Below are positions 1 through 39,096 of a DNA stretch of 39,096 bases, piece after piece. Numbering within the stretch: position 1 is the first letter of the stretch; the number at the start of each line of letters is the position of its first letter. Position numbers and translations under genes: made by a program. Under the pieces are notes generated by a model, which was not told the origin of the DNA, searched no databases, and was given only the letters and a program-made list of their open reading frames with translations. Source of the DNA: Escherichia phage T7; the sequence record AY264777.1. The stretch is one strand, 5' to 3'.

Positions 1-137
1 TTCCCCCATAAGGGGTACCTAAAGCCCAGCCAATCACCTAAAGTCAACCTTCGGTTGATCTTGAGGGTTCCCTAAGGGTTGGGGATGACCCTTGGGTTTG
101 TCTTTGGGTGTTACCTTGAGTGTCTCTCTGTGTTCCT
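1..137. repeat. Left direct terminal repeat, partial (window starts about 23 bp inside the 160-bp repeat)
   Basis: 1..120 is identical to 38960..39079 at the other end; the last 17 bp differ from the right copy at 2 positions. Confidence 0.9.
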
Positions 138-149
138 ATCTGTTACAGT

Positions 150-330
150 CTTCTAAAGTATCCTCTTAAAGTCACCTCCTAACGTCCATCCTAAAGCCAA
201 CACCTAAAGCCTACACCTAAAGACCCATCAAGTCAACGCCTATCTTAAAGTTTAAACATAAAGACCAGACCTAAAGACCAGACCTAAAGACACTACATAA
301 AGACCAGACCTAAAGACGCCTTGTTGTTAG
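150..330. repeat. Left-end array of short CCTAAAG-like repeats (T7 end-proximal short repeats)
   Basis: Irregularly spaced cctaaag/cttaaag/cataaag heptamers, e.g. accagacctaaagaccagacctaaagac; non-coding. Confidence 0.6.
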
Positions 331-364
331 CCATAAAGTGATAATCTTTAATCATTGTCTTTAT

Positions 365-387
365 TAATACAACTCACTATAAGGAGA
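365..387 (+). promoter_or_regulatory. T7 RNAP promoter phiOL
   Basis: taatacaactcactataaggaga, 21/23 match to the T7 consensus. Confidence 0.8.
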
Positions 388-438
388 GACAACTTAAAGA
401 GACTTAAAAGATTAATTTAAAATTTATCAAAAAGAGTA

Positions 439-476
439 TTGACTTAAAGTCTAATCTATAGGATACTTACAGCCAT
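439..476 (+). promoter_or_regulatory. E. coli sigma70 early promoter A1
   Basis: -35 ttgact (439-444), 17-bp spacer, -10 gatact (462-467), start near 475; matches the recalled T7 A1 context. Confidence 0.8.
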
Positions 477-565
477 CGAGAGGGACACGGTGAATAGCCA
501 TCCCAATCGACACCGGGGTCAACCGGATAAGTAGACAGCCTGATAAGTCGCACGAAAAACAGGTA

Positions 566-604
566 TTGACAACATGAAGTAACATGCAGTAAAATACAAA
601 TCGC
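566..604 (+). promoter_or_regulatory. E. coli sigma70 early promoter A2
   Basis: -35 ttgaca (566-571), -10 taaaat (590-595), start near 603. Confidence 0.8.
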
Positions 605-690
605 TAGATAACACTAGCAGCGTCAACCGGGCGCACAGTGCCTTCTAGGTGACTTAAGCGCACCACGGCACATAAGGTGAAACAAAACGG

Positions 691-728
691 TTGACAACAT
701 GAAGTAAACACGGTACGATGTACCACAT
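691..728 (+). promoter_or_regulatory. E. coli sigma70 early promoter A3
   Basis: -35 ttgaca (691-696), -10 tacgat (714-719), start near 727. Confidence 0.8.
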
Positions 729-813
729 GAAACGACAGTGAGTCACCACACTGAAAGGTGATGCGATCTAACGAAACCTGACCTAAGACGCTCTTTAACA
801 ATCTGGTAAATAG

Positions 814-870
814 CTCTTGAGTGCATGACTAGCGAATAACTCAAGGGTATCGCAAGGTGCCCTTTATGAT
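814..870 (+). promoter_or_regulatory. Probable RNase III processing stem-loop R0.3
   Basis: Imperfect inverted repeat ctcttgagt...actcaaggg followed by ccctttatgat upstream of gene 0.3. Confidence 0.45.
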
Positions 871-901
871 ATTCACTACTAACTGCACGAGGTAACACAA
901 G

Positions 902-1255
902 ATGGTTATGTCTAACATGACTTACAACAACGTTTTCGACCACGCTTACGAAATGCTGAAAGAAAACATCCGTTATGATGACATCCGTGACACTGATGAC
1001 CTGCACGATGCTATTCACATGGCTGCCGATAATGCAGTTCCGCACTACTACGCTGACATCTTTAGCGTAATGGCAAGTGAGGGCATTGACCTTGAGTTCG
1101 AAGACTCTGGTCTGATGCCTGACACCAAGGACGTAATCCGCATCCTGCAAGCACGTATCTATGAGCAATTAACGATTGACCTCTGGGAAGACGCAGAAGA
1201 CTTGCTCAATGAATACTTGGAGGAAGTCGAGAAGTACGAGGAGAATGAAGAGTAA
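902..1255 (+). CDS. ocr: Gene 0.3 Ocr, DNA-mimic anti-restriction protein (117 aa)
   Basis: ORF track 902..1255; acidic protein matching recalled T7 Ocr apart from 3 substitutions. Confidence 0.92.
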
Positions 1256-1338
1256 TGTCTACTACCAACGTGCAATACGGTCTGACCGCTCAAACTGTAC
1301 TTTTCTATAGCGACATGGTGCGCTGTGGCTTTAACTGA
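1255..1338 (+). pseudogene. 0.4: Gene 0.4 (FtsZ inhibitor) truncated by premature TGA after 27 codons
   Basis: ATG at 1255 overlapping the ocr stop; tga at 1336-1338; reading through would give 51 codons ending at tga 1408-1410, the wild-type length. Confidence 0.7.
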
Positions 1339-1412
1339 TCACTCGCAATGGCACAGCTCAAAGAACTGTACGAAAACAACAAGGCAATAGCTTTAGAATC
1401 TGCTGAGTGATA

Positions 1413-1450
1413 GACTCAAGGTCGCTCCTAGCGAGTGGCCTTTATGATTA
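1413..1450 (+). promoter_or_regulatory. RNase III processing site R0.5
   Basis: Motif ctcaaggtcgctcctagcgagtggcctttatgatt, which recurs in intergenic regions. Confidence 0.55.
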
Positions 1451-1472
1451 TCACTTTACTTATGAGGGAGTA

Positions 1473-1616
1473 ATGTATATGCTTACTATCGGTCTACTCA
1501 CCGCTCTAGGTCTAGCTGTAGGTGCATCTTTTGGGAAGGCTTTAGGTGTAGCTGTAGGTTCTTACTTTACCGCTTGCATCATCATAGGAATCATCAAAGG
1601 GGCACTACGCAAATGA
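1473..1616 (+). CDS. 0.5: Gene 0.5, small hydrophobic protein (47 aa)
   Basis: ATG at 1473 inside ORF-track frame 1407..1616; product MYMLTIGLLTALGLAVG... Confidence 0.7.
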   Translation: MYMLTIGLLTALGLAVGASFGKALGVAVGSYFTACIIIGIIKGALRK

Positions 1617-1774
1617 TGAAGCACTACGTTATGCCAATCCACACGTCCAACGGGGCAACCGTATGTACACCTGATGGGTTCGCAATGAAACAACGAATCG
1701 AACGCCTTAAGCGTGAACTCCGCATTAACCGCAAGATTAACAAGATAGATTCCGGCTATGACAGAACGCACTGA
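1613..1774 (+). CDS. 0.6: Gene 0.6A (53 aa); 0.6B would be a frameshift extension into the 1758..1976 frame
   Basis: Internal ATG at 1613 of ORF 1574..1774; product MMKHYVMPIHTSNGATV... Confidence 0.65.
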   Translation: MMKHYVMPIHTSNGATVCTPDGFAMKQRIERLKRELRINRKINKIDSGYDRTH

Positions 1775-1998
1775 TGGCTTAAAGAAAGGTTATATGCCCA
1801 ATGGCACACTATACGCTGCAAATTGGCGAATAGTGAGAACTTGGCGAGAGAACAACCTCGAACGCCGCAAGGAACAAGAGAGGGCGGCGTGGCATAGACG
1901 AAAGGAAAAGGTTAAAGCCAAGAAACTCGCCGCACTTGAACAGGCACTAGTCAACACACTGAACGCTATCTCATAACGAACATAAAGGACACAATGCA

Positions 1999-2259
1999 AT
2001 GAACATTACCGACATCATGAACGCTATCGACGCAATCAAAGCACTGCCAATCTGTGAACTTGACAAGCGTCAAGGTATGCTTATCGACTTACTGATCGAG
2101 ATGGTCAACAGCGAGACGTGTGATGGCGAGCTAACCGAACTAAATCAGGCGCTTGAGGAACGAATCGCGCTGCACTGGCGTAATGCTGACCGGATGGCTA
2201 TCGCTAATGGTCTTACGCTCAACATTGATAAGCAACTTGACGCAATGTTAATGGGCTGA
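1999..2259 (+). CDS. 0.7: Gene 0.7 remnant, 86 aa, in-frame internal deletion of the protein kinase/host-shutoff protein (wild type 359 aa)
   Basis: ORF 1999..2259 joins the recalled gp0.7 N-terminus ([14 protein letters not shown]...ELNQALE) to its C-terminus ([33 protein letters not shown]). Confidence 0.85.
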
Positions 2260-2264
2260 TAGTC

Positions 2265-2305
2265 TTATCTTACAGGTCATCTGCGAGTGGCCTGAATAGG
2301 TACGA
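2265..2305 (+). promoter_or_regulatory. Probable RNase III processing site R1
   Basis: acaggtcatctgcgagtggcctgaatagg upstream of gene 1, related to the recurring motif. Confidence 0.45.
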
Positions 2306-2329
2306 TTTACTAACTGGAAGAGGCACTAA

Positions 2330-4981
2330 ATGAACACGATTAACATCGCTAAGAACGACTTCTCTGACATCGAACTGGCTGCTATCCCGTTCAACACTCT
2401 GGCTGACCATTACGGTGAGCGTTTAGCTCGCGAACAGTTGGCTCTTGAGCATGAGTCTTACGAGATGGGTGAAGCACGCTTTCGCAAGATGTTTGAGCGT
2501 CAACTTAAAGCTGGTGAGGTTGCGGATAACGCTGCCGCCAAGCCTCTCATCACTACCCTACTCCCTAAGATGATTGCACGCATCAACGACTGGTTTGAGG
2601 AAGTGAAAGCTAAGCGCGGCAAGCGCCCGACAGCTTTCCAGTTCCTGCAAGAAATCAAGCCGGAAGCCGTAGCGTACATCACCATTAAGACCACTCTGGC
2701 TTGCCTAACCAGTGCTGACAATACAACCGTTCAGGCTGCAGCAAGCGCAATCGGTCGGGCCATTGAGGACGAGGCTCGTTTCGGTCGTATCCGTGACCTT
2801 GAAGCTAAGCACTTCAAGAAAAACGTTGAGGAACAACTCAACAAGCGCGTAGGGCACGTCTACAAGAAAGCATTTATGCAAGTTGTCGAGGCTGACATGC
2901 TCTCTAAGGGTCTACTCGGTGGCGAGGCGTGGTCTTCGTGGCATAAGGAAGACTCTATTCATGTAGGAGTACGCTGCATCGAGATGCTCATTGAGTCAAC
3001 CGGAATGGTTAGCTTACATCGCCAAAATGCTGGCGTAGTAGGTCAAGACTCTGAGACTATCGAACTCGCACCTGAATACGCTGAGGCTATCGCAACCCGT
3101 GCAGGTGCGCTGGCTGGCATCTCTCCGATGTTCCAACCTTGCGTAGTTCTTCCTAAGCCGTGGACTGGCATTACTGGTGGTGGCTATTGGGCTAACGGTC
3201 GTCGTCCTCTGGCGCTGGTGCGTACTCACAGTAAGAAAGCACTGATGCGCTACGAAGACGTTTACATGCCTGAGGTGTACAAAGCGATTAACATTGCGCA
3301 AAACACCGCATGGAAAATCAACAAGAAAGTCCTAGCGGTCGCCAACGTAATCACCAAGTGGAAGCATTGTCCGGTCGAGAACATCCCTGCGATTGAGCGT
3401 GAAGAACTCCCGATGAAACCGGAAAACATCGACATGAATCCTGAGGCTCTCATCGCGTGGAAACGTGCTGCCGCTGCTGTGTACCGCAAGGACAAGGCTC
3501 GCAAGTCTCGCCGTATCAGCCTTGAGTTCATGCTTGAGCAAGCCAATAAGTTTGCTAATCATAAGGCCATTTGGTTCCCTTACAACATGGACTGGCGCGG
3601 TCGTGTTTACGCTGTGTCAATGTTCAACCCGCAAGGTAACGATATGACCAAAGGACTGCTTACGCTGGCAAAAGGTAAACCAATCGGTAAGGAAGGTTAC
3701 TACTGGCTGAAAATCCACGGTGCAAACTGTGCGGGTGTCGATAAGGTTCCGTTCCCTGAGCGCATCAAGTTCATTGAGGAAAACCACGAGAACATCATAG
3801 CTTGCGCTAAGTCTCCACTGGAGAACACTTGGTGGGCTGAGCAAGATTCTCCGTTCTGCTTCCTTGCGTTCTGCTTTGAGTACGCTGGGGTACAGCACCA
3901 CGGCCTGAGCTATAACTGCTCCCTTCCGCTGGCGTTTGACGGGTCTTGCTCTGGCATCCAGCACTCCTCCGCGATGCTCCGAGATGAGGTAGGTGGTCGC
4001 GCGGTTAACTTGCTTCCTAGTGAAACCGTTCACGACATCTACGGGATTGTTGCTAAGAAAGTCAACGAGATTCTACAAGCAGATGCAATCAATGGGACCG
4101 ATAACGAAGTAGTTACCGTGACCGATGAGAACACTGGTGAAATCTCTGAGAAAGTCAAGCTGGGCACTAAGGCACTGGCTGGTCAATGGCTGGCTTACAG
4201 TGTTACTCGCAGTGTGACTAAGCGTTCAGTCATGACGCTGGCTTACGGGTCCAAAGAGTTCGGCTTCCGTCAACAAGTGCTGGAAGATACCATTCAGCCA
4301 GCTATTGATTCCGGCAAGGGTCTGATGTTCACTCAGCCGAATCAGGCTGCTGGATACATGGCTAAGCTGATTTGGGAATCTGTGAGCGTGACGGTGGTAG
4401 CTGCGGTTGAAGCAATGAACTGGCTTAAGTCTGCTGCTAAGCTGCTGGCTGCTGAGGTCAAAGATAAGAAGACTGGAGAGATTCTTCGCAAGCGTTGCGC
4501 TGTGCATTGGGTAACTCCTGATGGTTTTCCTGTGTGGCAGGAATACAAGAAGCCTATTCAGACGCGCTTGAACCTGATGTTCCTCGGTCAGTTCCGCTTA
4601 CAGCCTACCATTAACACCAACAAAGATAGCGAGATTGATGCACACAAACAGGAGTCTGGTATCGCTCCTAACTTTGTACACAGCCAAGACGGTAGCCATC
4701 TTCGTAAGACTGTAGTGTGGGCACACGAGAAGTACGGAATCGAATCTTTTGCACTGATTCACGACTCCTTCGGTACCATTCCGGCTGACGCTGCGAACTT
4801 GTTCAAAGCAGTGCGCGAAACTATGGTTGACACATATGAGTCTTGTGATGTACTGGCTGATTTCTACGACCAGTTCGCTGACCAGTTGCACGAGTCTCAA
4901 TTGGACAAAATGCCAGCACTTCCGGCTAAAGGTAACTTGAACCTCCGTGACATCTTAGAGTCGGACTTCGCGTTCGCGTAA
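2330..4981 (+). CDS. 1: Gene 1, T7 RNA polymerase (883 aa)
   Basis: ORF 2330..4981; full-length single-subunit RNAP; specificity-loop region as recalled for wild type. Confidence 0.98.
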   Translation: MNTINIAKNDFSDIELAAIPFNTLADHYGERLAREQLALEHESYEMGEARFRKMFERQLKAGEVADNAAAKPLITTLLPKMIARINDWFEEVKAKRGKRPTAFQFLQEIKPEAVAYITIKTTLACLTSADNTTVQAAASAIGRAIEDEARFGRIRDLEAKHFKKNVEEQLNKRVGHVYKKAFMQVVEADMLSKGLLGGEAWSSWHKEDSIHVGVRCIEMLIESTGMVSLHRQNAGVVGQDSETIELAPEYAEAIATRAGALAGISPMFQPCVVLPKPWTGITGGGYWANGRRPLALVRTHSKKALMRYEDVYMPEVYKAINIAQNTAWKINKKVLAVANVITKWKHCPVENIPAIEREELPMKPENIDMNPEALIAWKRAAAAVYRKDKARKSRRISLEFMLEQANKFANHKAIWFPYNMDWRGRVYAVSMFNPQGNDMTKGLLTLAKGKPIGKEGYYWLKIHGANCAGVDKVPFPERIKFIEENHENIIACAKSPLENTWWAEQDSPFCFLAFCFEYAGVQHHGLSYNCSLPLAFDGSCSGIQHSSAMLRDEVGGRAVNLLPSETVHDIYGIVAKKVNEILQADAINGTDNEVVTVTDENTGEISEKVKLGTKALAGQWLAYSVTRSVTKRSVMTLAYGSKEFGFRQQVLEDTIQPAIDSGKGLMFTQPNQAAGYMAKLIWESVSVTVVAAVEAMNWLKSAAKLLAAEVKDKKTGEILRKRCAVHWVTPDGFPVWQEYKKPIQTRLNLMFLGQFRLQPTINTNKDSEIDAHKQESGIAPNFVHSQDGSHLRKTVVWAHEKYGIESFALIHDSFGTIPADAANLFKAVRETMVDTYESCDVLADFYDQFADQLHESQLDKMPALPAKGNLNLRDILESDFAFA

Positions 4982-4989
4982 CGCCAAAT

Positions 4990-5012
4990 CAATACGACTC
5001 ACTATAGAGGGA
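4990..5012 (+). promoter_or_regulatory. T7 promoter phi1.1A (part of the primary replication origin)
   Basis: caatacgactcactatagaggga. Confidence 0.85.
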
Positions 5013-5014
5013 CA

Positions 5015-5052
5015 AACTCAAGGTCATTCGCAAGAGTGGCCTTTATGATTGA
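5015..5052 (+). promoter_or_regulatory. RNase III processing site R1.1
   Basis: ctcaaggtcattcgcaagagtggcctttatgatt. Confidence 0.55.
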
Positions 5053-5064
5053 CCTTCTTCCGGT

Positions 5065-5087
5065 TAATACGACTCACTATAGGAGAA
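5065..5087 (+). promoter_or_regulatory. T7 promoter phi1.1B
   Basis: taatacgactcactataggagaa. Confidence 0.85.
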
Positions 5088-5165
5088 CCTTAAGGTTTAA
5101 CTTTAAAACCCTTAAGTGTTAATTAGAGATTTAAATTAAAGAATTACTAAGAGAGGACTTTAAGT

Positions 5166-5294
5166 ATGCGTAACTTCGAAAAGATGACCAAACGTTCTAA
5201 CCGTAATGCTCGTGACTTCGAGGCAACCAAAGGTCACAAGTTGAATAAGACTAAGCGTGACCGCTCTCACAAGCGTAGCTGGGAGGGTCAGTAA
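5166..5294 (+). CDS. 1.1: Gene 1.1 (42 aa, basic)
   Basis: ATG 5166 to taa 5292-5294; MRNFEKMTKRSNRNARDFEATKGHKLNKTKRDRSHKRSWEGQ. Confidence 0.7.
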   Translation: MRNFEKMTKRSNRNARDFEATKGHKLNKTKRDRSHKRSWEGQ

Positions 5295-5295
5295 G

Positions 5296-5553
5296 ATGGG
5301 ACGTTTATATAGTGGTAATCTGGCAGCATTCAAGGCAGCAACAAACAAGCTGTTCCAGTTAGACTTAGCGGTCATTTATGATGATTGGTATGATGCTTAT
5401 ACAAGAAAAGATTGCATACGGTTACGTATTGAGGACAGGAGTGGAAACTTGATTGATACTAGCACCTTCTACCACCACGACGAGGACGTTCTGTTCAATA
5501 TGTGTACTGATTGGTTGAACCATATGTATGACCAGTTGAAGGACTGGAAGTAA
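5296..5553 (+). CDS. 1.2: Gene 1.2, inhibitor of host dGTPase (85 aa)
   Basis: Internal ATG 5296 of ORF 5257..5553; MGRLYSGNLAAFKAATNKLF... Confidence 0.8.
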   Translation: MGRLYSGNLAAFKAATNKLFQLDLAVIYDDWYDAYTRKDCIRLRIEDRSGNLIDTSTFYHHDEDVLFNMCTDWLNHMYDQLKDWK

Positions 5554-5573
5554 TACGACTCAGTATAGGGACA
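5551..5573 (+). promoter_or_regulatory. T7 promoter phi1.3
   Basis: taatacgactcagtatagggaca. Confidence 0.85.
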
Positions 5574-5575
5574 AT

Positions 5576-5615
5576 GCTTAAGGTCGCTCTCTAGGAGTGG
5601 CCTTAGTCATTTAAC
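5576..5615 (+). promoter_or_regulatory. RNase III processing site R1.3
   Basis: cttaaggtcgctctctaggagtggccttagtcattt. Confidence 0.5.
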
Positions 5616-5633
5616 CAATAGGAGATAAACATT

Positions 5634-6713
5634 ATGATGAACATTAAGACTAACCCGTTTAAAGCCGTGTCTTTCGTAGAGTCTGCCATTAAGAAGGCTC
5701 TGGATAACGCTGGGTATCTTATCGCTGAAATCAAGTACGATGGTGTACGCGGGAACATCTGCGTAGACAATACTGCTAACAATTACTGGCTCTCTCGTGT
5801 ATCTAAAACGATTCCGGCACTGGAGCACTTAAACGGGTTTGATGTTCGCTGGAAGCGTCTACTGAACGATGACCGTTGCTTCTACAAAGATGGCTTTATG
5901 CTTGATGGGGAACTCATGGTCAAAGGCGTAGACTTTAACACAGGGTCCGGCCTACTGCGTACCAAATGGACTGACACGAAGAACCAAGAATTCCATGAAG
6001 AGTTATTCGTTGAACCAATCCGTAAGAAAGATAAAGTTCCCTTTAAGCTGCACACTGGACACCTTCACATAAAACTGTACGCTATCCTCCCGCTGCACAT
6101 CGTGGAGTCTGGAGAAGACTGTGATGTCATGACGTTGCTCATGCAGGAACACGTTAAGAACATGCTGCCTCTGCTACAGGAATACTTCCCTGAAATCGAA
6201 TGGCAAGCGGCTGAATCTTACGAGGTCTACGATATGGTAGAACTACAGCAACTGTACGAGCAGAAGCGAGCAGAAGGCCATGAGGGTCTCATTGTGAAAG
6301 ACCCGATGTGTATCTATAAGCGCGGTAAGAAATCTGGCTGGTGGAAAATGAAACCTGAGAACGAAGCTGACGGTATCATTCAGGGTCTGGTATGGGGTAC
6401 AAAAGGTCTGGCTAATGAAGGTAAAGTGATTGGTTTTGAGGTGCTTCTTGAGAGTGGTCGTTTAGTTAACGCCACGAATATCTCTCGCGCCTTAATGGAT
6501 GAGTTCACTGAGACAGTAAAAGAGGCCACCCTAAGTCAATGGGGATTCTTTAGCCCATACGGTATTGGCGACAACGATGCTTGTACTATTAACCCTTACG
6601 ATGGCTGGGCGTGTCAAATTAGCTACATGGAGGAAACACCTGATGGCTCTTTGCGGCACCCATCGTTCGTAATGTTCCGTGGCACCGAGGACAACCCTCA
6701 AGAGAAAATGTAA
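5634..6713 (+). CDS. 1.3: Gene 1.3, ATP-dependent DNA ligase (359 aa)
   Basis: ORF 5634..6713; ligase motif region EIKYDGVRG with the adenylation lysine. Confidence 0.95.
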   Translation: MMNIKTNPFKAVSFVESAIKKALDNAGYLIAEIKYDGVRGNICVDNTANNYWLSRVSKTIPALEHLNGFDVRWKRLLNDDRCFYKDGFMLDGELMVKGVDFNTGSGLLRTKWTDTKNQEFHEELFVEPIRKKDKVPFKLHTGHLHIKLYAILPLHIVESGEDCDVMTLLMQEHVKNMLPLLQEYFPEIEWQAAESYEVYDMVELQQLYEQKRAEGHEGLIVKDPMCIYKRGKKSGWWKMKPENEADGIIQGLVWGTKGLANEGKVIGFEVLLESGRLVNATNISRALMDEFTETVKEATLSQWGFFSPYGIGDNDACTINPYDGWACQISYMEETPDGSLRHPSFVMFRGTEDNPQEKM

Positions 6714-10383: not shown

Positions 10384-12424
<2,041 letters not shown>

Positions 12425-12482
12425 CAGGATTCTTGATGACTTTCCAGACGACTACGAAAAGTTTCGCTGGAGAGTCCCATTC

Positions 12483-12505
12483 TAATACGACTCACTAAAG
12501 GAGAC
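12483..12505 (+). promoter_or_regulatory. T7 promoter phi4.3
   Basis: taatacgactcactaaaggagac. Confidence 0.85.
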
Positions 12506-22045: not shown

Positions 22046-22068
22046 TAATACGATTCATTATAGGGAGA
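22046..22068 (+). promoter_or_regulatory. T7 class III promoter phi10 (two substitutions, -9 and -5)
   Basis: taatacgattcattatagggaga followed by the gene 10 leader ccacaacggtttccctctagaaataattttgtttaactttaagaaggagatatacat. Confidence 0.9.
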
Positions 22069-22125: not shown

Positions 22126-23163
22126 ATGGCTAGCATGACTGGTGGACAGCAAATGGGTACTAACCAAGGTAAAGGTGTAGTTGCTGCTGGAGATAAACTG
22201 GCGTTGTTCTTGAAGGTATTTGGCGGTGAAGTCCTGACTGCGTTCGCTCGTACCTCCGTGACCACTTCTCGCCACATGGTACGTTCCATCTCCAGCGGTA
22301 AATCCGCTCAGTTCCCTGTTCTGGGTCGCACTCAGGCAGCGTATCTGGCTCCGGGCGAGAACCTCGACGATAAACGTAAGGACATCAAACACACCGAGAA
22401 GGTAATCATCATTGACGGTCTCTTGACGGCTGACGTTCTGATTTATGATATTGAGGACGCGATGAACCACTACGACGTTCGCTCTGAGTATACCTCTCAG
22501 TTGGGTGAATCTCTGGCGATGGCTGCGGATGGTGCGGTTCTGGCTGAGATTGCCGATCTGTGTAACGTGGAAAGCAAATATAATGAGAACATCGAGGGCT
22601 TAGGTACTGCTACCGTAATTGAGACCACTCAAAACAAGGCCGCACTTACCGACCAAATTGCGCTGGGTAAGGAGATTATTGCGGCTCTGACTAAGGCTCG
22701 TGCGGTTCTGACCAAGAACTATGTTCCGGCTGCTGACCGTGTGTTCTACTGTGACCCAGATAGCTACTCTGCGATTCTGGCAGCACTGATGCCGAACGCA
22801 GCAAACTACGCTGCTCTGATTGACCCTGAGAAGGGTTCTATTCGCAACGTTATGGGCTTTGAGGTTGTAGAAGTTCCGCACCTCACCGCTGGTGGTGCTG
22901 GTACCGCTCGTGAGGGCACTACTGGTCAGAAGCACGTCTTCCCTGCCAATAAAGGTGAGGGTAATGTCAAGGTTGCTAAGGACAACGTTATCGGTCTGTT
23001 CATGCACCGCTCTGCGGTAGGTACTGTTAAGCTGCGTGACTTGGCTCTGGAGCGCGCTCGCCGTGCTAACTTCCAAGCGGACCAGATTATCGCTAAGTAC
23101 GCAATGGGCCACGGTGGTCTTCGCCCAGAAGCTGCTGGTGCAGTGGTTTTCAAAGTGGAGTAA
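22126..23163 (+). CDS. 10: Gene 10A, major capsid protein (345 aa)
   Basis: ORF 22126..23163; MASMTGGQQMG...VVFKVE. Confidence 0.98.
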   Translation: MASMTGGQQMGTNQGKGVVAAGDKLALFLKVFGGEVLTAFARTSVTTSRHMVRSISSGKSAQFPVLGRTQAAYLAPGENLDDKRKDIKHTEKVIIIDGLLTADVLIYDIEDAMNHYDVRSEYTSQLGESLAMAADGAVLAEIADLCNVESKYNENIEGLGTATVIETTQNKAALTDQIALGKEIIAALTKARAVLTKNYVPAADRVFYCDPDSYSAILAALMPNAANYAALIDPEKGSIRNVMGFEVVEVPHLTAGGAGTAREGTTGQKHVFPANKGEGNVKVAKDNVIGLFMHRSAVGTVKLRDLALERARRANFQADQIIAKYAMGHGGLRPEAAGAVVFKVE

Positions 23164-29753: not shown

Positions 29754-32700
29754 ATGGATAAGTACGATAAGAACGTACCAAGTGATTATGATGGTCTGTT
29801 CCAAAAGGCTGCTGATGCCAACGGGGTCTCTTATGACCTTTTACGTAAAATCGCTTGGATAGAATCACGATTTGTGCATACAGCAAAATCTAAGACTGGA
29901 CCATTAGGCATGATGCAATTTACCAAGGCAACCGCTAAGGCCCTCGGTCTGCGAATTACCGATGGTCCAGACGACGACCGACTGAACCCTGAGTTAGCTA
30001 TTAATGCTGCCGCTAAGCAACTTGCAGGTCTGGTAGGGAAGTTTGATGGCGATGAACTCAAAGCTGCCCTTGCGTACAACCAAGGCGAGGGACGCTTGGG
30101 TAATTCACAACTTGAGGCGTACTCTAAGGGAGACTTCGCATCAATCTCTGAGGAGGGACGTAACTACATGCGTAACCTTCTGGATGTTGCTAAGTCACCT
30201 ATGGCTGGACAGTTGGAAACTTTTGGTGGCATAACCCCAAAGGGTAAAGGCATTCCGGCTGAGGTAGGATTGGCTGGAATTGGTCACAAGCAGAAAGTAA
30301 CACAGGAACTTCCTGAGTCCACAAGTTTTGACGTTAAGAGTATCGAACAGGAGGCTACGGCGAAACCATTCGCCAAGGACTTTTGGGAGACCCACGGAGA
30401 AACACTTGACGAGTACAACAGTCGTTCAACCTTCTTCGGATTCAAAAATGTTGCCGAAGCTGAATTCTCCAACTCAGTCGCTGGGATGGCTTTCCGTGCT
30501 GGTCGTCTCGATAATGGTTTTGATGTGTTTAAAGACACCATTACGCCGACTCGCTGGAACTCTCACATCTGGACTCCAGAGGAGTTAGAGAAGATTCGAA
30601 CAGAGGTTAAGAACCCTGCGTACATCAACGTTGTAATTGGTGGTTCCCCTGAGAACCTCGATGATCTCATTAAATTGGCTAACGAGAACTTTGAGAATGA
30701 CTCCCGCGCTGCCGAGGCTGGCCTAGGTGCCAAACTGAGTGCTGGTATTATTGGTGCTGGTGTGGACCCGCTTAGCTATGTTCCTATGGTCGGTGTCACT
30801 GGTAAGGGCTTTAAGTTAATCAATAAGGCTCTTGTAGTTGGTGCCGAAAGTGCTGCTCTGAACGTTGCATCCGAAGGTCTCCGTACTTCCGTAGCTGGTG
30901 GTGACGCAGACTATGCGGGTGCTGCCTTAGGTGGCTTTGTGTTTGGCGCAGGCATGTCTGCAATCAGTGACGCTGTAGCTGCTGGACTGAAACGCAGTAA
31001 ACCAGAAGCTGAGTTCGACAATGAGTTCATCGGTCCTATGATGCGATTGGAAGCCCGTGAGACAGCACGAAACGCCAACTCTGCGGACCTCTCTCGGATG
31101 AACACTGAGAACATGAAGTTTGAAGGTGAACATAATGGTGTCCCTTATGAGGACTTACCAACAGAGAGAGGTGCCGTGGTGTTACATGATGGCTCCGTTC
31201 TAAGTGCAAGCAACCCAATCAACCCTAAGACTCTAAAAGAGTTCTCCGAGGTTGACCCTGAGAAGGCTGCACGAGGAATCAAACTGGCTGGGTTCACCGA
31301 GATTGGCTTGAAGACCTTGGGGTCTGACGATGCTGACATTCGTAGAATGGCTATCGACCTCGTTCGTTCTCCTACTGGTATGCAGTCTGGTGCCTCAGGT
31401 AAGTTCGGTGCAACAGCTTCTGACATCCATGAGAGACTTCATGGTACTGACCAGCATACTTATAATGACTTGTACAAAGCAATGTCTGACGCTATGAAAG
31501 ACCCTGAGTTCTCTACTGGCGGCGCTAAGATGTCCCGTGAAGAAACTCGATACACTATCTACCGTAGAGCGGCACTAGCTATTGAGCGTCCAGAACTACA
31601 GAAGGCACTCACTCCGTCTGAGAGAATCGTTATGGACATCATTAAGCGTCACTTTGACACCAAGCGTGAACTTATGGAAAACCCAGCAATATTCGGTAAT
31701 ACAAAGGCTGTGAGTATCTTCCCTGAGAGTCGCCACAAAGGTACTTACGTTCCTCACGTATATGACCGTCATGCCAAGGCGCTGATGATTCAACGCTACG
31801 GTGCCGAAGGTTTGCAGGAAGGGATTGCCCGCTCATGGATGAACAGCTACGTCTCCAGACCTGAGGTCAAAGCCAGAGTCGATGAGATGCTTAAGGAATT
31901 ACACGGGGTGAAGGAAGTAACACCAGAGATGGTAGAGAAGTACGCTATGGATAAGGCTTATGGTATCTCCCACTCAGACCAGTTCACCAACAGTTCCATA
32001 ATAGAAGAGAACATTGAGGGCTTAGTAGGTATCGAGAATAACTCATTCCTTGAGGCACGTAACTTGTTTGATTCGGACCTATCCATCACTATGTCAGACG
32101 GACAGCAATTCTCAGTGAATGATCTAAGGGACTTCGATATGTTCCGCATCATGCCAGCGTATGACCGTCGTGTCAATGGTGACATCGCCATCATGGGGTC
32201 TACTGGTAAAACCACTAAGGAACTTAAGGATGAGATTTTGGCTCTCAAAGCGAAAGTTGCGGGAAACGGTAAGAAGACTGGCGAGGTACATGCTTTAATG
32301 GATACCGTTAAGATTCTTACTGGTCGTGCTAGACGCAATCAGGACACTGTGTGGGAAACCTCACTGCGTGCCATCAATGACCTAGGGTTCTTCGCTAAGA
32401 ACGCCTACATGGGTGCTCAGAACATTACGGAGATTGCTGGGATGATTGTCACTGGTAACGTTCGTGCTCTAGGGCATGGTATCCCAATTCTGCGTGATAC
32501 ACTCTACAAGTCTAAACCAGTTTCAGCTAAGGAACTCAAGGAACTCCATGCGTCTCTGTTCGGGAAGGAGGTGGACCAGTTGATTCGGCCTAAACGTGCT
32601 GACATTGTGCAGCGCCTAAGGGAAGCAACTGATACCGGACCTGCCGTGGCGAACATCGTAGGGATCTTGAAGTATTCAACACAGGAACTGGCTGCTCGCT

Positions 32701-33710
32701 CTCCGTGGACTAAGCTACTGAACGGAACCACTAACTACCTTCTGGATGCTGCGCGTCAAGGTATGCTTGGGGATGTTATTAGTGCCACCCTAACAGGTAA
32801 GACTACCCGCTGGGAGAAAGAAGGCTTCCTTCGTGGTGCCTCCGTAACTCCTGAGCAGATGGCTGGCATCAAGTCTCTCATCAAGGAACATATGGTACGC
32901 GGTGAAGACGGGAAGTTTACCGTTAAGGACAAGCAAGCGTTCTCTATGGACCCACGGGCTATGAACTTATGGAGACTGGCTGACAAGGTAGCTGATGAGG
33001 CAATGCTGCGTCCACATAAGGTGTCCTTACAGGATTCCCATGCGTTCGGAGCACTAGGTAAGATGGTTATGCAGTTTAAGTCTTTCACTATCAAGTCCCT
33101 TAACTCTAAGTTTCTGCGAACCTTCTATGATGGATACAAGAACAACCGAGCGATTGACGCTGCGCTGAGCATCATCACCTCTATGGGTCTCGCTGGTGGT
33201 TTCTATGCTATGGCTGCACACGTCAAAGCATACGCTCTGCCTAAGGAGAAACGTAAGGAGTACTTGGAGCGTGCACTGGACCCAACCATGATTGCCCACG
33301 CTGCGTTATCTCGTAGTTCTCAATTGGGTGCTCCTTTGGCTATGGTTGACCTAGTTGGTGGTGTTTTAGGGTTCGAGTCCTCCAAGATGGCTCGCTCTAC
33401 GATTCTACCTAAGGACACCGTGAAGGAACGTGACCCAAACAAACCGTACACCTCTAGAGAAGTAATGGGCGCTATGGGTTCAAACCTTCTGGAACAGATG
33501 CCTTCGGCTGGCTTTGTGGCTAACGTAGGGGCTACCTTAATGAATGCTGCTGGCGTGGTCAACTCACCTAATAAAGCAACCGAGCAGGACTTCATGACTG
33601 GTCTTATGAACTCCACAAAAGAGTTAGTACCGAACGACCCATTGACTCAACAGCTTGTGTTGAAGATTTATGAGGCGAACGGTGTTAACTTGAGGGAGCG
33701 TAGGAAATAA
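29754..33710 (+). CDS. 16: Gene 16, internal virion protein D with N-terminal lytic transglycosylase domain (1318 aa)
   Basis: ORF 29754..33710; N-terminal region (IAWIESRF...GPLGMMQF) typical of lytic transglycosylases. Confidence 0.95.
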   Translation: MDKYDKNVPSDYDGLFQKAADANGVSYDLLRKIAWIESRFVHTAKSKTGPLGMMQFTKATAKALGLRITDGPDDDRLNPELAINAAAKQLAGLVGKFDGDELKAALAYNQGEGRLGNSQLEAYSKGDFASISEEGRNYMRNLLDVAKSPMAGQLETFGGITPKGKGIPAEVGLAGIGHKQKVTQELPESTSFDVKSIEQEATAKPFAKDFWETHGETLDEYNSRSTFFGFKNVAEAEFSNSVAGMAFRAGRLDNGFDVFKDTITPTRWNSHIWTPEELEKIRTEVKNPAYINVVIGGSPENLDDLIKLANENFENDSRAAEAGLGAKLSAGIIGAGVDPLSYVPMVGVTGKGFKLINKALVVGAESAALNVASEGLRTSVAGGDADYAGAALGGFVFGAGMSAISDAVAAGLKRSKPEAEFDNEFIGPMMRLEARETARNANSADLSRMNTENMKFEGEHNGVPYEDLPTERGAVVLHDGSVLSASNPINPKTLKEFSEVDPEKAARGIKLAGFTEIGLKTLGSDDADIRRMAIDLVRSPTGMQSGASGKFGATASDIHERLHGTDQHTYNDLYKAMSDAMKDPEFSTGGAKMSREETRYTIYRRAALAIERPELQKALTPSERIVMDIIKRHFDTKRELMENPAIFGNTKAVSIFPESRHKGTYVPHVYDRHAKALMIQRYGAEGLQEGIARSWMNSYVSRPEVKARVDEMLKELHGVKEVTPEMVEKYAMDKAYGISHSDQFTNSSIIEENIEGLVGIENNSFLEARNLFDSDLSITMSDGQQFSVNDLRDFDMFRIMPAYDRRVNGDIAIMGSTGKTTKELKDEILALKAKVAGNGKKTGEVHALMDTVKILTGRARRNQDTVWETSLRAINDLGFFAKNAYMGAQNITEIAGMIVTGNVRALGHGIPILRDTLYKSKPVSAKELKELHASLFGKEVDQLIRPKRADIVQRLREATDTGPAVANIVGILKYSTQELAARSPWTKLLNGTTNYLLDAARQGMLGDVISATLTGKTTRWEKEGFLRGASVTPEQMAGIKSLIKEHMVRGEDGKFTVKDKQAFSMDPRAMNLWRLADKVADEAMLRPHKVSLQDSHAFGALGKMVMQFKSFTIKSLNSKFLRTFYDGYKNNRAIDAALSIITSMGLAGGFYAMAAHVKAYALPKEKRKEYLERALDPTMIAHAALSRSSQLGAPLAMVDLVGGVLGFESSKMARSTILPKDTVKERDPNKPYTSREVMGAMGSNLLEQMPSAGFVANVGATLMNAAGVVNSPNKATEQDFMTGLMNSTKELVPNDPLTQQLVLKIYEANGVNLRERRK

Positions 33711-33730
33711 TACGACTCACTATAGGGAGA
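33708..33730 (+). promoter_or_regulatory. T7 class III promoter phi17 (exact consensus)
   Basis: taatacgactcactatagggaga. Confidence 0.9.
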
Positions 33731-33782
33731 GGTGAAATAATCTTCTCCCTGTAGTTTCTTAGATTTACTTTAAGGAGGTCAA

Positions 33783-35444
33783 ATGGCTAACGTAATTAAA
33801 ACCGTTTTGACTTACCAGTTAGATGGCTCCAATCGTGATTTTAATATCCCGTTTGAGTATCTAGCCCGTAAGTTCGTAGTGGTAACTCTTATTGGTGTAG
33901 ACCGAAAGGTCCTTACGATTAATACAGACTATCGTTTTGCTACACGTACTACTATCTCTCTGACAAAGGCTTGGGGTCCAGCCGATGGCTACACGACCAT
34001 CGAGTTACGTCGAGTAACCTCCACTACCGACCGATTGGTTGACTTTACGGATGGTTCAATCCTCCGCGCGTATGACCTTAACGTCGCTCAGATTCAAACG
34101 ATGCACGTAGCGGAAGAGGCCCGTGACCTCACTACGGATACTATCGGTGTCAATAACGATGGTCACTTGGATGCTCGTGGTCGTCGAATTGTGAATCTAG
34201 CGAACGCTGTGAATGACCGCGATGCTGTTCCGTTTGGTCAACTAAAAACCATGAACCAGAACTCATGGCAAGCACGTAATGAAGCCTTACAGTTCCGTAA
34301 TGAGGCTGAGACTTTCAGAAACCAAGCGAAGGGCTTTAAGAACGAGTTCAGTACCAACGCTACGAACACAAAGCAGTGGCGCGATGAGACCAAGGGTTTC
34401 CGAGACGAAGCCAAGCGGTTCAAGAATACGGCTGGTCAATACGCTACATCTGCTGGGAACTCTGCTTCCGCTGCGCATCAATCTGAGGTAAACGCTGAGA
34501 ACTCTGCCACAGCATCCGCTAACTCTGCTCATTTGGCAGAACAGCAAGCAGATCGTGCGGAACGTGAGGCAGACAAGCTGGAAAATTACAATGAATTGGC
34601 TGGTGCAATTGATAAGGTAGATGGAACCAATGTGTACTGGAAAGGAAATATTCACGCTAACGGGCGCCTTTACATGACCACAAACGGTTTTGACTGTGGC
34701 CAGTATCAACAGTTCTTTGGTGGTGTCACTAATCGTTACTCTGTCATGGAGTGGGGAGATGAGAACGGATGGCTGATGTATGTTCAACGTAGAGAGTGGA
34801 CAACAGCGATAGGCGGTAACATCCAGTTAGTAGTAAACGGACAGATCATCACCCAAGGTGGAGCCATGACCGGTCAGCTAAAATTGCAGAATGGGCATGT
34901 TCTTCAATTAGAGTCCGCATCCGACAAGGCGCACTATATTCTATCTAAAGATGGTAACAGGAATAACTGGTACATTGGTAGAGGGTCAGATAACAACAAT
35001 GACTGTACCTTCCACTCCTATGTACATGGTACGACCTTAACACTCAAGCAGGACTATGCAGTAGTTAACAAACACTTCCACGTAGGTCAGGCCGTTGTGG
35101 CCACTGATGGTAATATTCAAGGTACTAAGTGGGGAGGTAAATGGCTGGATGCTTACCTACGTGACAGCTTCGTTGCGAAGTCCAAGGCGTGGACTCAGGT
35201 GTGGTCTGGTAGGGTTGGCGGTGGGGTAAGTGTGACTGTTTCACAGGATCTCCGCTTCCGCAATATCTGGATTAAGTGTGCCAACAACTCTTGGAACTTC
35301 TTCCGTACTGGCCCCGATGGAACCTACTTCATAGCCTCTGATGGTGGATGGTTACGATTCCAAATACACTCCAACGGTCTCGGATTCAAGAATATTGCAG
35401 ACAGTCGTTCAGTACCTAATGCAATCATGGTGGAGAACGAGTAA
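33783..35444 (+). CDS. 17: Gene 17, tail fiber protein (553 aa)
   Basis: ORF track 33783..35444. Confidence 0.95.
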   Translation: MANVIKTVLTYQLDGSNRDFNIPFEYLARKFVVVTLIGVDRKVLTINTDYRFATRTTISLTKAWGPADGYTTIELRRVTSTTDRLVDFTDGSILRAYDLNVAQIQTMHVAEEARDLTTDTIGVNNDGHLDARGRRIVNLANAVNDRDAVPFGQLKTMNQNSWQARNEALQFRNEAETFRNQAKGFKNEFSTNATNTKQWRDETKGFRDEAKRFKNTAGQYATSAGNSASAAHQSEVNAENSATASANSAHLAEQQADRAEREADKLENYNELAGAIDKVDGTNVYWKGNIHANGRLYMTTNGFDCGQYQQFFGGVTNRYSVMEWGDENGWLMYVQRREWTTAIGGNIQLVVNGQIITQGGAMTGQLKLQNGHVLQLESASDKAHYILSKDGNRNNWYIGRGSDNNNDCTFHSYVHGTTLTLKQDYAVVNKHFHVGQAVVATDGNIQGTKWGGKWLDAYLRDSFVAKSKAWTQVWSGRVGGGVSVTVSQDLRFRNIWIKCANNSWNFFRTGPDGTYFIASDGGWLRFQIHSNGLGFKNIADSRSVPNAIMVENE

Positions 35445-35502
35445 TTGGTAAATCACAAGGAAAGACGTGTAGTCCACGGATGGACTCTCAAGGAGGTACA
35501 AG

Positions 35503-35706
35503 GTGCTATCATTAGACTTTAACAACGAATTGATTAAGGCTGCTCCAGTTGTTGGGACGGGTGTAGCAGATATTAGTGCTCGACTGTTCTTTGGGTTAAG
35601 CCTTAACGAATGGTTCTACGCTGCTGCTATCGCCTACACAGTGGTTCAGATTGGTGCCAAGGTAGTCGATAAGATGATTGACTGGAAGAAAGCTAATAAG
35701 GAGTGA
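35503..35706 (+). CDS. 17.5: Gene 17.5, holin (67 aa)
   Basis: ORF 35503..35706; one hydrophobic segment and a charged C-terminus. Confidence 0.85.
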   Translation: MLSLDFNNELIKAAPVVGTGVADISARLFFGLSLNEWFYAAAIAYTVVQIGAKVVDKMIDWKKANKE

Positions 35707-35711
35707 TATGT

Positions 35712-35981
35712 ATGGAAAAGGATAAGAGCCTTATTACATTCTTAGAGATGTTGGACACTGCGATGGCTCAGCGTATGCTTGCGGACCTTTCGGACCATGA
35801 GCGTCGCTCTCCGCAACTCTATAATGCTATTAACAAACTGTTAGACCGCCACAAGTTCCAGATTGGTAAGTTGCAGCCGGATGTTCACATCTTAGGTGGC
35901 CTTGTTGGTGCTCTTGAAGAGTACAAAGAGAAAGTCGGTGATAACGGTCTTACGGATGATGATATTTACACATTACAATGA
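35712..35981 (+). CDS. 18: Gene 18, terminase small subunit (89 aa)
   Basis: Internal ATG 35712 of ORF 35703..35981. Confidence 0.85.
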   Translation: MEKDKSLITFLEMLDTAMAQRMLADLSDHERRSPQLYNAINKLLDRHKFQIGKLQPDVHILGGLVGALEEYKEKVGDNGLTDDDIYTLQ

Positions 35982-35983
35982 TA

Positions 35984-36020
35984 TACTCAAGGCCACTACA
36001 GATAGTGGTCTTTATGGATG
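35984..36020 (+). promoter_or_regulatory. RNase III processing site R18.5
   Basis: tactcaaggccactacagatagtggtctttatggatg. Confidence 0.5.
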
Positions 36021-36075
36021 TCATTGTCTATACGAGATGCTCCTACGTGAAATCTGAAAGTTAACGGGAGGCATT

Positions 36076-36507
36076 ATGCTAGAATTTTTACGTAAGCTAA
36101 TCCCTTGGGTTCTCGTTGGGATGCTATTCGGGTTAGGATGGCATCTAGGGTCAGACTCAATGGACGCTAAATGGAAACAGGAGGTACACAATGAGTACGT
36201 TAAGAGAGTTGAGGCTGCGAAGAGCACTCAAAGAGCAATCGGTGCGGTATCTGCTAAGTATCAAGAAGACCTTGCCGCGCTGGAAGGGAGCACTGATAGG
36301 ATTATTTCTGATTTGCGTAGCGACAATAAGCGGTTGCGCGTCAGAGTCAAAACTACCGGAATCTCCGATGGTCAGTGTGGATTCGAGCCTGATGGTCGAG
36401 CCGAACTTGACGACCGAGATGCTAAACGTATTCTCGCAGTGACCCAGAAGGGTGACGCATGGATTCGTGCGTTACAGGATACTATTCGTGAACTGCAACG
36501 TAAGTAG
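36076..36507 (+). CDS. 18.5: Gene 18.5, Rz-like i-spanin (143 aa)
   Basis: ORF 36076..36507 with N-terminal transmembrane segment. Confidence 0.85.
   Translation: MLEFLRKLIPWVLVGMLFGLGWHLGSDSMDAKWKQEVHNEYVKRVEAAKSTQRAIGAVSAKYQEDLAALEGSTDRIISDLRSDNKRLRVRVKTTGISDGQCGFEPDGRAELDDRDAKRILAVTQKGDAWIRALQDTIRELQRK
36191..36442 (+). CDS. 18.7: Gene 18.7, Rz1-like o-spanin embedded in a different frame of 18.5 (83 aa)
   Basis: ORF 36191..36442 wholly inside 18.5; lipobox-like LICVATISGCAS. Confidence 0.7.
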   Translation: MSTLRELRLRRALKEQSVRYLLSIKKTLPRWKGALIGLFLICVATISGCASESKLPESPMVSVDSSLMVEPNLTTEMLNVFSQ

Positions 36508-36528
36508 GAAATCAAGTAAGGAGGCAAT

Positions 36529-38289
36529 GTGTCTACTCAATCCAATCGTAATGCGCTCGTAGTGGCGCAACTGAAAGGAGACTTCGTGGCGTTCCTATTC
36601 GTCTTATGGAAGGCGCTAAACCTACCGGTGCCCACTAAGTGTCAGATTGACATGGCTAAGGTGCTGGCGAATGGAGACAACAAGAAGTTCATCTTACAGG
36701 CTTTCCGTGGTATCGGTAAGTCGTTCATCACATGTGCGTTCGTTGTGTGGTCTTTATGGAGAGACCCTCAGTTGAAGATACTTATCGTATCAGCCTCTAA
36801 GGAGCGTGCAGACGCTAACTCCATCTTTATTAAGAACATCATTGACCTGCTGCCATTCCTATCTGAGTTAAAGCCAAGACCCGGACAGCGTGACTCGGTA
36901 ATTAGCTTTGATGTAGGCCCAGCCAATCCTGACCACTCTCCTAGTGTGAAATCAGTAGGTATTACTGGTCAGTTAACTGGTAGCCGTGCTGACATTATCA
37001 TTGCGGATGACGTTGAGATTCCGTCTAACAGTGCAACTATGGGTGCCCGTGAGAAGCTATGGACTCTGGTTCAGGAGTTCGCTGCATTACTTAAACCGCT
37101 GTCTTCCTCTCGCGTTATCTACCTTGGTACACCTCAGACAGAGATGACTCTCTATAAGGAACTTGAGGATAACCGTGGGTACACAACCATTATTTGGCCT
37201 GCTCTGTACCCAAGGACACGTGAAGAGAACCTCTATTACTCACAGCGTCTTGCTCCTATGTTACGCGCTGAGTACGATGAGAACCCTGAGGCACTTGCTG
37301 GGACTCCAACAGACCCAGTGCGCTTTGACCGTGATGACCTGCGCGAGCGTGAGTTGGAATACGGTAAGGCTGGCTTTACGCTACAGTTCATGCTTAACCC
37401 TAACCTTAGTGATGCCGAGAAGTACCCGCTGAGGCTTCGTGACGCTATCGTAGCGGCCTTAGACTTAGAGAAGGCCCCAATGCATTACCAGTGGCTTCCG
37501 AACCGTCAGAACATCATTGAGGACCTTCCTAACGTTGGCCTTAAGGGTGATGACCTGCATACATACCACGATTGTTCCAACAACTCAGGTCAGTACCAAC
37601 AGAAGATTCTGGTCATTGACCCTAGTGGTCGCGGTAAGGACGAAACAGGTTACGCTGTGCTGTACACACTGAACGGTTACATCTACCTTATGGAAGCTGG
37701 AGGTTTCCGTGATGGCTACTCCGATAAGACCCTTGAGTTACTCGCTAAGAAGGCAAAGCAATGGGGAGTCCAGACGGTTGTCTACGAGAGTAACTTCGGT
37801 GACGGTATGTTCGGTAAGGTATTCAGTCCTATTCTTCTTAAACACCACAACTGTGCGATGGAAGAGATTCGTGCCCGTGGTATGAAAGAGATGCGTATTT
37901 GCGATACTCTTGAGCCAGTCATGCAGACTCACCGCCTTGTAATTCGTGATGAGGTCATTAGGGCCGACTACCAGTCCGCTCGTGACGTAGACGGTAAGCA
38001 TGACGTTAAGTACTCGTTGTTCTACCAGATGACCCGTATCACTCGTGAGAAAGGCGCTCTGGCTCATGATGACCGATTGGATGCCCTTGCGTTAGGCATT
38101 GAGTATCTTCGTGAGTCCATGCAGTTGGATTCCGTTAAGGTCGAGGGTGAAGTACTTGCCGACTTCCTTGAGGAACACATGATGCGTCCTACGGTTGCTG
38201 CTACGCATATCATTGAGATGTCTGTGGGAGGAGTTGATGTGTACTCTGAGGACGATGAGGGTTACGGTACGTCTTTCATTGAGTGGTGA
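36529..38289 (+). CDS. 19: Gene 19, terminase large subunit (586 aa), apparent GTG start
   Basis: ORF track 36529..38289. Confidence 0.95.
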
Positions 38290-38370
38290 TTTATGCATTA
38301 GGACTGCATAGGGATGCACTATAGACCACGGATGGTCAGTTCTTTAAGTTACTGAAAAGACACGATAAAT

Positions 38371-38393
38371 TAATACGACTCACTATAGGGAGA
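38371..38393 (+). promoter_or_regulatory. T7 promoter phiOR (exact consensus)
   Basis: taatacgactcactatagggaga. Confidence 0.9.
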
Positions 38394-38547
38394 GGAGGGA
38401 CGAAAGGTTACTATATAGATACTGAATGAATACTTATAGAGTGCATAAAGTATGCATAATGGTGTACCTAGAGTGACCTCTAAGAATGGTGATTATATTG
38501 TATTAGTATCACCTTAACTTAAGGACCAACATAAAGAGAGGAGACTC

Positions 38548-38697
38548 ATGTTCCGCTTATTGTTGAACCTACTGCGGCATAGAGTCACCTACCGATTTCT
38601 TGTGGTACTTTGTGCTGCCCTTGGGTACGCATCTCTTACTGGAGACCTCAGTTCACTGGAGTCTGTCGTTTGCTCTATACTCACTTGTAGCGATTAG
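38548..38697 (+). CDS. 19.5: Gene 19.5 (49 aa)
   Basis: ATG 38548 to tag 38695-38697; MFRLLLNLLRHRVTYRFLVVLCAALGYASLTG... Confidence 0.6.
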   Translation: MFRLLLNLLRHRVTYRFLVVLCAALGYASLTGDLSSLESVVCSILTCSD

Positions 38698-38759
38698 GGT
38701 CTTTCTGACCGACTGATGGCTCACCGAGGGATTCAGCGGTATGATTGCATCACACCACT

Positions 38760-38936
38760 TCATCTCTATAGAGTCAAGTCCTAAGGTATATCCATAAAGA
38801 GCCTCTAATGGTCTATCCTAAGGTCTATACCTAAAGATAGGCCATCCTATCAGTGTCACCTAAAGAGGGTCTTAGAGAGGGCCTATGGAGTTCCTATAGG
38901 GTCCTTTAAAATATACCATAAAAATCTGAGTGACTA
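38760..38936. repeat. Right-end short-repeat region (cctaaag/cctaagg-like motifs) preceding the terminal repeat
   Basis: Recurring tcctaaggtctatacctaaagataggccatcctatcagtgtcacctaaagag motifs. Confidence 0.45.
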
Positions 38937-39096
38937 TCTCACAGTGTACGGACCTAAAGTTCCCCCATAAGGGGTACCTAAAGCCCAGCCAATCACCTAA
39001 AGTCAACCTTCGGTTGATCTTGAGGGTTCCCTAAGGGTTGGGGATGACCCTTGGGTTTGTCTTTGGGTGTTACCTTGAGTGTCTCTCTGTGTCCCA
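38937..39096. repeat. Right direct terminal repeat (160 bp)
   Basis: 38960..39079 identical to 1..120; begins tctcacagtgtacggacctaaag. Confidence 0.9.

Follow-up and report, generated by a model that had tools for sequence, protein, structure and literature searches.

Substitution spectrum, sequence context, and probable laboratory origin of a heavily mutagenised bacteriophage T7 genome, GenBank AY264777.1

Laboratory lines of Escherichia phage T7 that were propagated under mutagenesis are the closest described systems to the genome treated here, sequence record AY264777.1, which was analyzed as a single strand over its whole length of 39,096 nucleotides (hereafter, the window). Bull, Badgett, Rokyta, and Molineux (Bull et al., 2003) are said to have taken two T7 lines through mutagenesis and bottlenecks, with 404 and 299 substitutions as the outcome. 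Missense changes reportedly outnumbered silent ones and were more frequent in non-essential genes, and a partial recovery of fitness is said to have involved few further substitutions. The results given below agree with this outline. In the experimental T7 phylogeny of Hillis et al. (1992), T7 was also propagated with a mutagen (PMC2491900), and it is possible, though less certain, that lines K and P are among its terminal lineages. Two later T7 studies from the same group as the 2003 work, by Springman et al. (2010) and Bull et al. (2013), reportedly used large populations, in contrast to the bottleneck fixation that would apply to the line described here. The former used nitrosoguanidine and the latter hydroxylamine; according to one of the group's papers, G:C->A:T substitutions dominate in T7 after mutagenesis with either agent (PMC6042481), a dominance that the window shares. 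Serial propagation of T7 with a mutagen was also part of the group's earlier work (PMC2491900). The accession series to which the window belongs comprises AY264774 (wild type), which PMC2680503 credits to Bull et al. (2003), AY264775 (isolate K), AY264776 (K115), and AY264778 (P82).

The window was globally aligned with MAFFT to wild-type T7 (NC_001604/V01146), as well as to AY264774, P82, K, and K115. The comparison with NC_001604 comprises 39,095 aligned columns, and AY264774 served as the control for drift of laboratory stocks.

Positions 1-39096, no strand assigned: near-complete T7 genome with 304 substitutions in the global alignment, spread in a near-Poisson manner.

We found that the 304 substitutions relative to NC_001604 (0.78%, or 1 per 129 bp) are overwhelmingly of one class: 286 (94.1%) are G:C->A:T and lie on both strands, with 127 G>A and 159 C>T. 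The 18 other changes are seven T>C, four A>G, and seven transversions. By comparison, the wild type of the Bull laboratory (AY264774) departs from the Dunn-Studier reference in only two respects, an adjacent GT/TG swap and a 1-bp insertion; with this drift as the baseline, the load of the window is approximately 100-fold higher. A first-pass annotation, made from the letters alone, had described an apparently exclusive G:C->A:T load of about 1 per 100 bp, far above strain drift, in a heavily mutagenised or mutation-accumulation T7 lineage. The 94% share of G:C->A:T changes on both strands supports such a lineage, and both the dominance of this class and the excess over drift are real; the spectrum is not exclusive, and the density was overestimated. 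That annotation had also seen no confident transversion, nor any indel besides the gene 0.7 deletion, which is corrected here by the seven transversions and the 1-bp insertion found in the whole genome. Nothing like a balanced spectrum, which it had named as the contrary outcome, appears in the alignment, where 94.1% of changes fall in one class. Its expectation of more than 95% G:C->A:T falls slightly short over all changes (94.1%) and holds when the sites shared with line K are set aside (271/282, 96.1%).

The changes are scattered along the window with a variance-to-mean ratio of 1.12 in 500-bp bins (p = 0.23). Across the whole window there is no excess of closely spaced mutation pairs, and G>A and C>T changes follow one another at random along the genome (runs test: 140 runs against 142 expected, z = -0.27). 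This near-Poisson distribution fits many independent hits fixed across many passages, not a few multi-hit events. Clustered or strand-coordinated multiple hits, as considered for nitrosoguanidine at replication forks, were ruled out because over-dispersion, an excess of close pairs, and runs are all lacking.

For the analysis of sequence context, each G:C->A:T change was oriented to the strand bearing the G, and its neighbors were compared with the dinucleotide background of the genome. A purine precedes the mutated G in 239 of 286 cases (83.6%), against 51% in the background. Of the 286 mutated guanines, 123 follow G, 116 follow A, 33 follow C, and 14 follow T, and the corresponding background dinucleotide counts are 4155 (GG), 5489 (AG), 4016 (CG), and 5251 (TG). 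The resulting per-site rates of 0.030 for GG, 0.021 for AG, 0.008 for CG, and 0.003 for TG span an 11-fold range (chi-square p = 1.5e-29). In the same set there is no dependence on the 3' neighbor (p = 0.39).

Nitrosoguanidine shares its methyldiazonium chemistry with temozolomide, and the classical lacI spectra obtained with N-methyl-N'-nitro-N-nitrosoguanidine (MNNG) follow the same 5'-purine rule. In the pyrimidine convention, the pattern of the window reads as C>T at CpC and CpT, which in a biochemical study is the O6-methylguanine-dependent pattern of temozolomide, a methylating agent of the unimolecular (SN1) type (PMC12556801). The window resembles the signature of SN1 agents (MNNG, N-methyl-N-nitrosourea, and temozolomide; COSMIC SBS11) in having G>A at GpG and ApG, with the order GG > AG >> CG > TG. 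It differs in being a phage genome that was copied by T7 DNA polymerase in E. coli and filtered by selection, and the match is one by dinucleotide, not by the 96-channel profile. These results support the reading of the dinucleotide context as an O6-methylguanine signature, and because the mutated G prefers a 5' purine, the agent is narrowed to an SN1 methylating compound such as nitrosoguanidine. Among the causes listed in the first-pass annotation, the alkylating agents are therefore retained in this narrower form, and cytosine deamination is disfavored.

Other mutagens that produce G:C->A:T changes, namely hydroxylamine or bisulfite acting on virion cytosine, or ethyl methanesulfonate (EMS) ethylating guanine, would likewise leave a nearly pure spectrum of this class. 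However, neither hydroxylamine nor EMS is known for a strong preference in the base that precedes the mutated G, and the 11-fold dependence found here matches SN1 methylation. Hydroxylamine was indeed used on T7 by the same laboratory (PMC6042481), but only later: the record series belongs to the 2003 study, which predates the hydroxylamine work. We consider an origin by any of these agents very unlikely. Less credible still is enzymatic cytosine deamination during T7 replication by APOBEC, AID, or a base-editor deaminase. Such enzymes can cause C>T/G>A hypermutation at a density of about 1%, but they choose their targets by the base 5' of C (TC, CC, or WRC), a base that is without effect here (p = 0.39). 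Moreover, deaminases acting on single-stranded DNA typically leave their mutations in strand-coordinated clusters, unlike the arrangement in the window (runs z = -0.27, dispersion 1.12).

The coding changes carry a clear footprint of selection. Genes were sorted into essential and non-essential classes according to general knowledge of T7, and observed numbers were compared with those expected from context-weighted opportunity. Of the substitutions, 143 are missense, 121 synonymous, and 1 nonsense within the primary reading frames, and 39 are intergenic. Relative to expectation (observed/expected), missense G:C->A:T changes stand at 0.65 for essential and 1.33 for non-essential genes, and synonymous changes range from 0.9 to 1.6. 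No nonsense change was found in the essential genes, against 6.1 expected (P = 0.002). All essential open reading frames (ORFs) are intact, including those with many amino-acid changes (17 in gp16, 10 in gp15, and 9 in the RNA polymerase). Besides the deleted gene 0.7, the only interrupted annotated ORFs are the following two, which the P82 record labels "similar to gene 0.4" and "similar to gene 4.2", respectively.

Positions 1255-1410, + strand: gene 0.4, inactivated by W28* (TGG>TGA, G>A at 1338), the only nonsense change in a primary reading frame.
Positions 12147-12485, + strand: ORF 4.2, embedded in gene 4 and interrupted at codon 59, with gene 4A/4B intact.

Under the annotation scheme of the Bull series, the wild type has 57 coding sequences, of which 54 are intact in the window (0.4, 4.2, and 0.7 being lost). 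The intact ORFs and the avoidance of nonsense changes therefore show that the differences are real inherited mutations that passed through viable phage, not sequencing damage. The footprint agrees with the expectation for bottlenecked mutation accumulation, in which many missense changes become fixed and strongly deleterious ones are removed. A naturally divergent T7 strain or an artefact of sequencing or DNA damage can be dismissed as extremely improbable, as natural divergence would not concentrate 94% of the changes in a single class and leave a dinucleotide signature (two laboratory wild-type records differ by only about 3 changes), and an artefact would neither spare essential genes from nonsense (0 against 6.1 expected) or missense changes nor be inherited, as these changes are by the descendant P82.

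The closest relative of the window is isolate P82. When the first 20 kb were searched with megablast against GenBank phage records, the matches were T7 throughout, with 99.1% identity to ordinary T7 and 99.9% to AY264778.1 (P82). P82 shares with the window almost all of the approximately 300 substitutions, the 819-bp deletion in gene 0.7, the nonsense change in 0.4, and the interruption of 4.2. The two differ by about 25 substitutions (25-26), three small indels, and one base of length at the right end. The indels, all absent from the window, are a 12-bp deletion in gene 7.3 and two single-base deletions, by which genes 2.8 and 4.7 are inactivated. From the window to P82 the substitutions have a mixed spectrum (12 G:C->A:T and 10 transversions, n = 25), because of which the additional changes in P82 fit a later recovery phase free of mutagen. 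This kinship to the deposited series, like the spectrum, the sequence context, and the selection footprint, is a direct observation. By analogy with the relationship of K to K115, the window most probably represents the pre-recovery isolate "P". At 4 of the 25 sites (window positions 3966, 4033, 16472, and 18730), P82 has regained the wild-type base. Only two reversions were reportedly described in the 2003 study, and at some of the four sites the difference may stem from a correction of the sequence from one record to the next, not from a real reversion.

Line K, the mutagenised sister line, offers a parallel case. Its changes are 94.6% G:C->A:T with 80% 5' purines and the same rank order of dinucleotides, and it has an independent deletion of approximately 820 bp in the 0.7 region. 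Line K differs from the window in its 409-417 substitutions, only 22 of which are common to both, in the end points of its deletion, and in a strand asymmetry of 1.11. Changes shared with K are concentrated in the minority class, as they account for 7 of the 18 changes that are not G:C->A:T and for only 15 of the 286 that are (p = 7e-5). The seven sites concerned are 14253, 18730, 29878, 35323, 35548, 35621, and 39096, and examples include A>G in gene 7.3 (18730), T>C in gene 17 (35323), and the changes at 35548 and 35621 in gene 17.5. The minority class is also richer in missense changes (13 of 16 coding changes, against 131 of 249 in the mutagen class; Fisher p = 0.036). This pattern suggests that the shared minority changes may be parallel adaptive substitutions or may already have been present in a common, already-diverged ancestor.

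Taken as a whole, it is very likely that this genome is that of a laboratory T7 line, most probably "P" of Bull et al. (2003), mutagenised with nitrosoguanidine through bottlenecks. From the signature together with the literature, we infer how the changes arose chemically, which mutagen was used, and how the line was passaged. The line would have been founded from the Bull/Molineux wild-type stock and propagated in N-methyl-N'-nitro-N-nitrosoguanidine with repeated population bottlenecks. The mutagen would methylate guanine at O6, favoring guanines with a 5' purine, and T7 DNA polymerase would pair O6-methylguanine with T, producing G:C->A:T on whichever strand bore the lesion. Bottlenecks would then fix the changes almost irrespective of their effect on fitness, such that only strongly deleterious ones are lost. 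Three points weigh against this origin. The number of substitutions counted here is 304, against a reported 299; window gp1 and gp7.3 have no exact match in the protein collection; and a 1.4-fold strand asymmetry, weak in line K, is not predicted by simple alkylation.

The first-pass annotation had expected no strand asymmetry, and the alignment shows a modest one that reaches significance: C>T affects 1.80% of all C and G>A affects 1.26% of all G, which gives a ratio of 1.42 (binomial p = 0.003). The asymmetry persists after weighting by dinucleotide context, with 127 G>A and 159 C>T observed against 152.5 and 133.5 expected. In line K the corresponding ratio of 1.11 is not significant. Purifying selection explains part of the effect, since a G>A change on the coding strand has the higher chance of being missense or nonsense. 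Such selection was rejected as the sole cause, as the asymmetry is kept at synonymous sites (C>T 81 against 50.5 expected, G>A 37 against 37; p = 0.019). Replication direction was also rejected, as the ratio does not flip at the primary origin (1.49 to the left and 1.41 to the right), although power on the left is low with 42 mutations. The ratio is strongest, at 2.2, in the last quarter of the genome (approximately 29.2-39.1 kb of the window, or 30-40 kb of the reference). All T7 genes are transcribed from one strand. An excess of hits on guanines of the template (minus) strand might reflect an asymmetry, linked to transcription or replication, in the formation, repair, or bypass of O6-methylguanine in T7, although we hold this to be unlikely.

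There are two length changes in the early region of the window.

Between positions 2146 and 2147, + strand: junction of an in-frame 819-bp deletion in gene 0.7 (reference 2170-2988) in the global alignment.
Position 1873, + strand: 1-bp insertion relative to V01146, after reference base 1895/1896 and also present in AY264774.

The deletion removes exactly 273 codons between copies of an imperfect direct repeat, AGGC(A/G)CTTGAG, and leaves a remnant ORF of 86 codons (window 1999-2259). In line K, 821 bp of the same region are deleted between CCGCAAG repeats (K locus approximately 1734), and as judged from these end points and repeats the deletions of the two lines are independent and parallel. 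The insertion is a marker of the Bull/Molineux T7+ stock and was inherited by the window from that laboratory stock; the wild type of this laboratory has a 1-bp insertion after base 1896 relative to the Dunn-Studier sequence (PMC2680503). The GT/TG swap in AY264774 sits at its positions 11062-11063 (NC_001604 11061-11062), where the window matches the reference. It is probably an error in the AY264774 record, because the window descends from that stock and yet agrees with the reference.

All of the individual sites listed in the first-pass annotation were found in the alignment, with position and type as given there. In regulatory sequences, these are the C>T changes at -9 and -5 of the phi10 promoter (22054 and 22058), G>A at +2 of phi9 (21025), C>T in the Tphi stem (23331), and G>A in the Shine-Dalgarno sequence of gene 11 (23380). 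In coding regions, they are T95I (ACC>ATC), G144D (GGT>GAT), V178I (GTT>ATT), and A194V (GCT>GTT) in gp10A, two sites in the 10B tail (23247 and 23289), A2V, E111K, and D115N in ocr, and W28* of gene 0.4 (TGG>TGA, 1338). The two terminal-repeat changes (11 and 59) are likewise present, with counterparts in the right copy at 38970 and 39018.

Positions 22126-23163, + strand: gene 10A (major capsid protein), with eight substitutions, four missense (T95I, G144D, V178I, and A194V) and four silent.
Positions 22046-22068, + strand: phi10 promoter with C>T at -9 and -5, TAATACGACTCACTATAGGGAGA -> TAATACGATTCATTATAGGGAGA.

The gp10A of the window is identical to GenBank AAP34105.1 and AAP34157.1, the latter being the P82 copy. 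The proteins of K115 end at AAP34066 and those of P82 start at AAP34121; AAP34105 thus lies among 54 intervening accessions (AAP34067-AAP34120), which must be those of AY264777 and which equal in number the intact coding sequences of the window. Promoters for T7 RNA polymerase carry six substitutions in total (8268, 10339, 10343, 21025, 22054, and 22058), which correspond to phi2.5 +3, phi3.8 +1 and +5, phi9 +2, and phi10 -9 and -5. Among these, only the paired change in phi10, the promoter of the capsid gene, lies in the upstream recognition region, and it probably weakens the promoter.

The window spans reference bases 24-39937, and the first 23 reference bases have no counterpart in it. The two copies of the terminal repeat (TR) are as follows.

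Positions 1-137, + strand: left TR (TR positions 24-160), with G>A at 11, C>T at 59, and C>T at 134 (TR position 157).
Positions 38937-39096, + strand: right TR, with TR positions 34 and 82 changed as in the left copy (38970 and 39018).

The copies disagree at TR position 157, where C>T is present on the left only and the right copy (window 39093) is wild type; the last base of the window (39096) reads A, not T. The discordance is also found in P82, and line K similarly has a change near the TR end in the left copy only, wild-type sequence at the right end, and A as its last base. In T7 both repeats are rebuilt from one copy at the concatemer junction, and stable discordance is unexpected for this reason. 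For the final 20 or so bases of the right end, the record probably gives primer-derived or assumed sequence, a reading with which the absence of the first 23 bases is consistent. The transversion at the last base (39096) is doubtful.

The genome and its mutation load are already known, from the deposited GenBank series and, reportedly, from the 2003 paper. A mutagen-type spectrum is recognizable from raw sequence, and after alignment the agent can be named from dinucleotide context alone. The present analysis refines this knowledge only slightly, by tabulating the sequence contexts, by showing the strand asymmetry, and by finding the minority class enriched among the sites shared with line K. 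If the excess on template-strand guanines did arise from a transcription- or replication-linked asymmetry of O6-methylguanine, old mutagenised T7 genomes would constitute a data set for strand-specific alkylation mutagenesis in phage.

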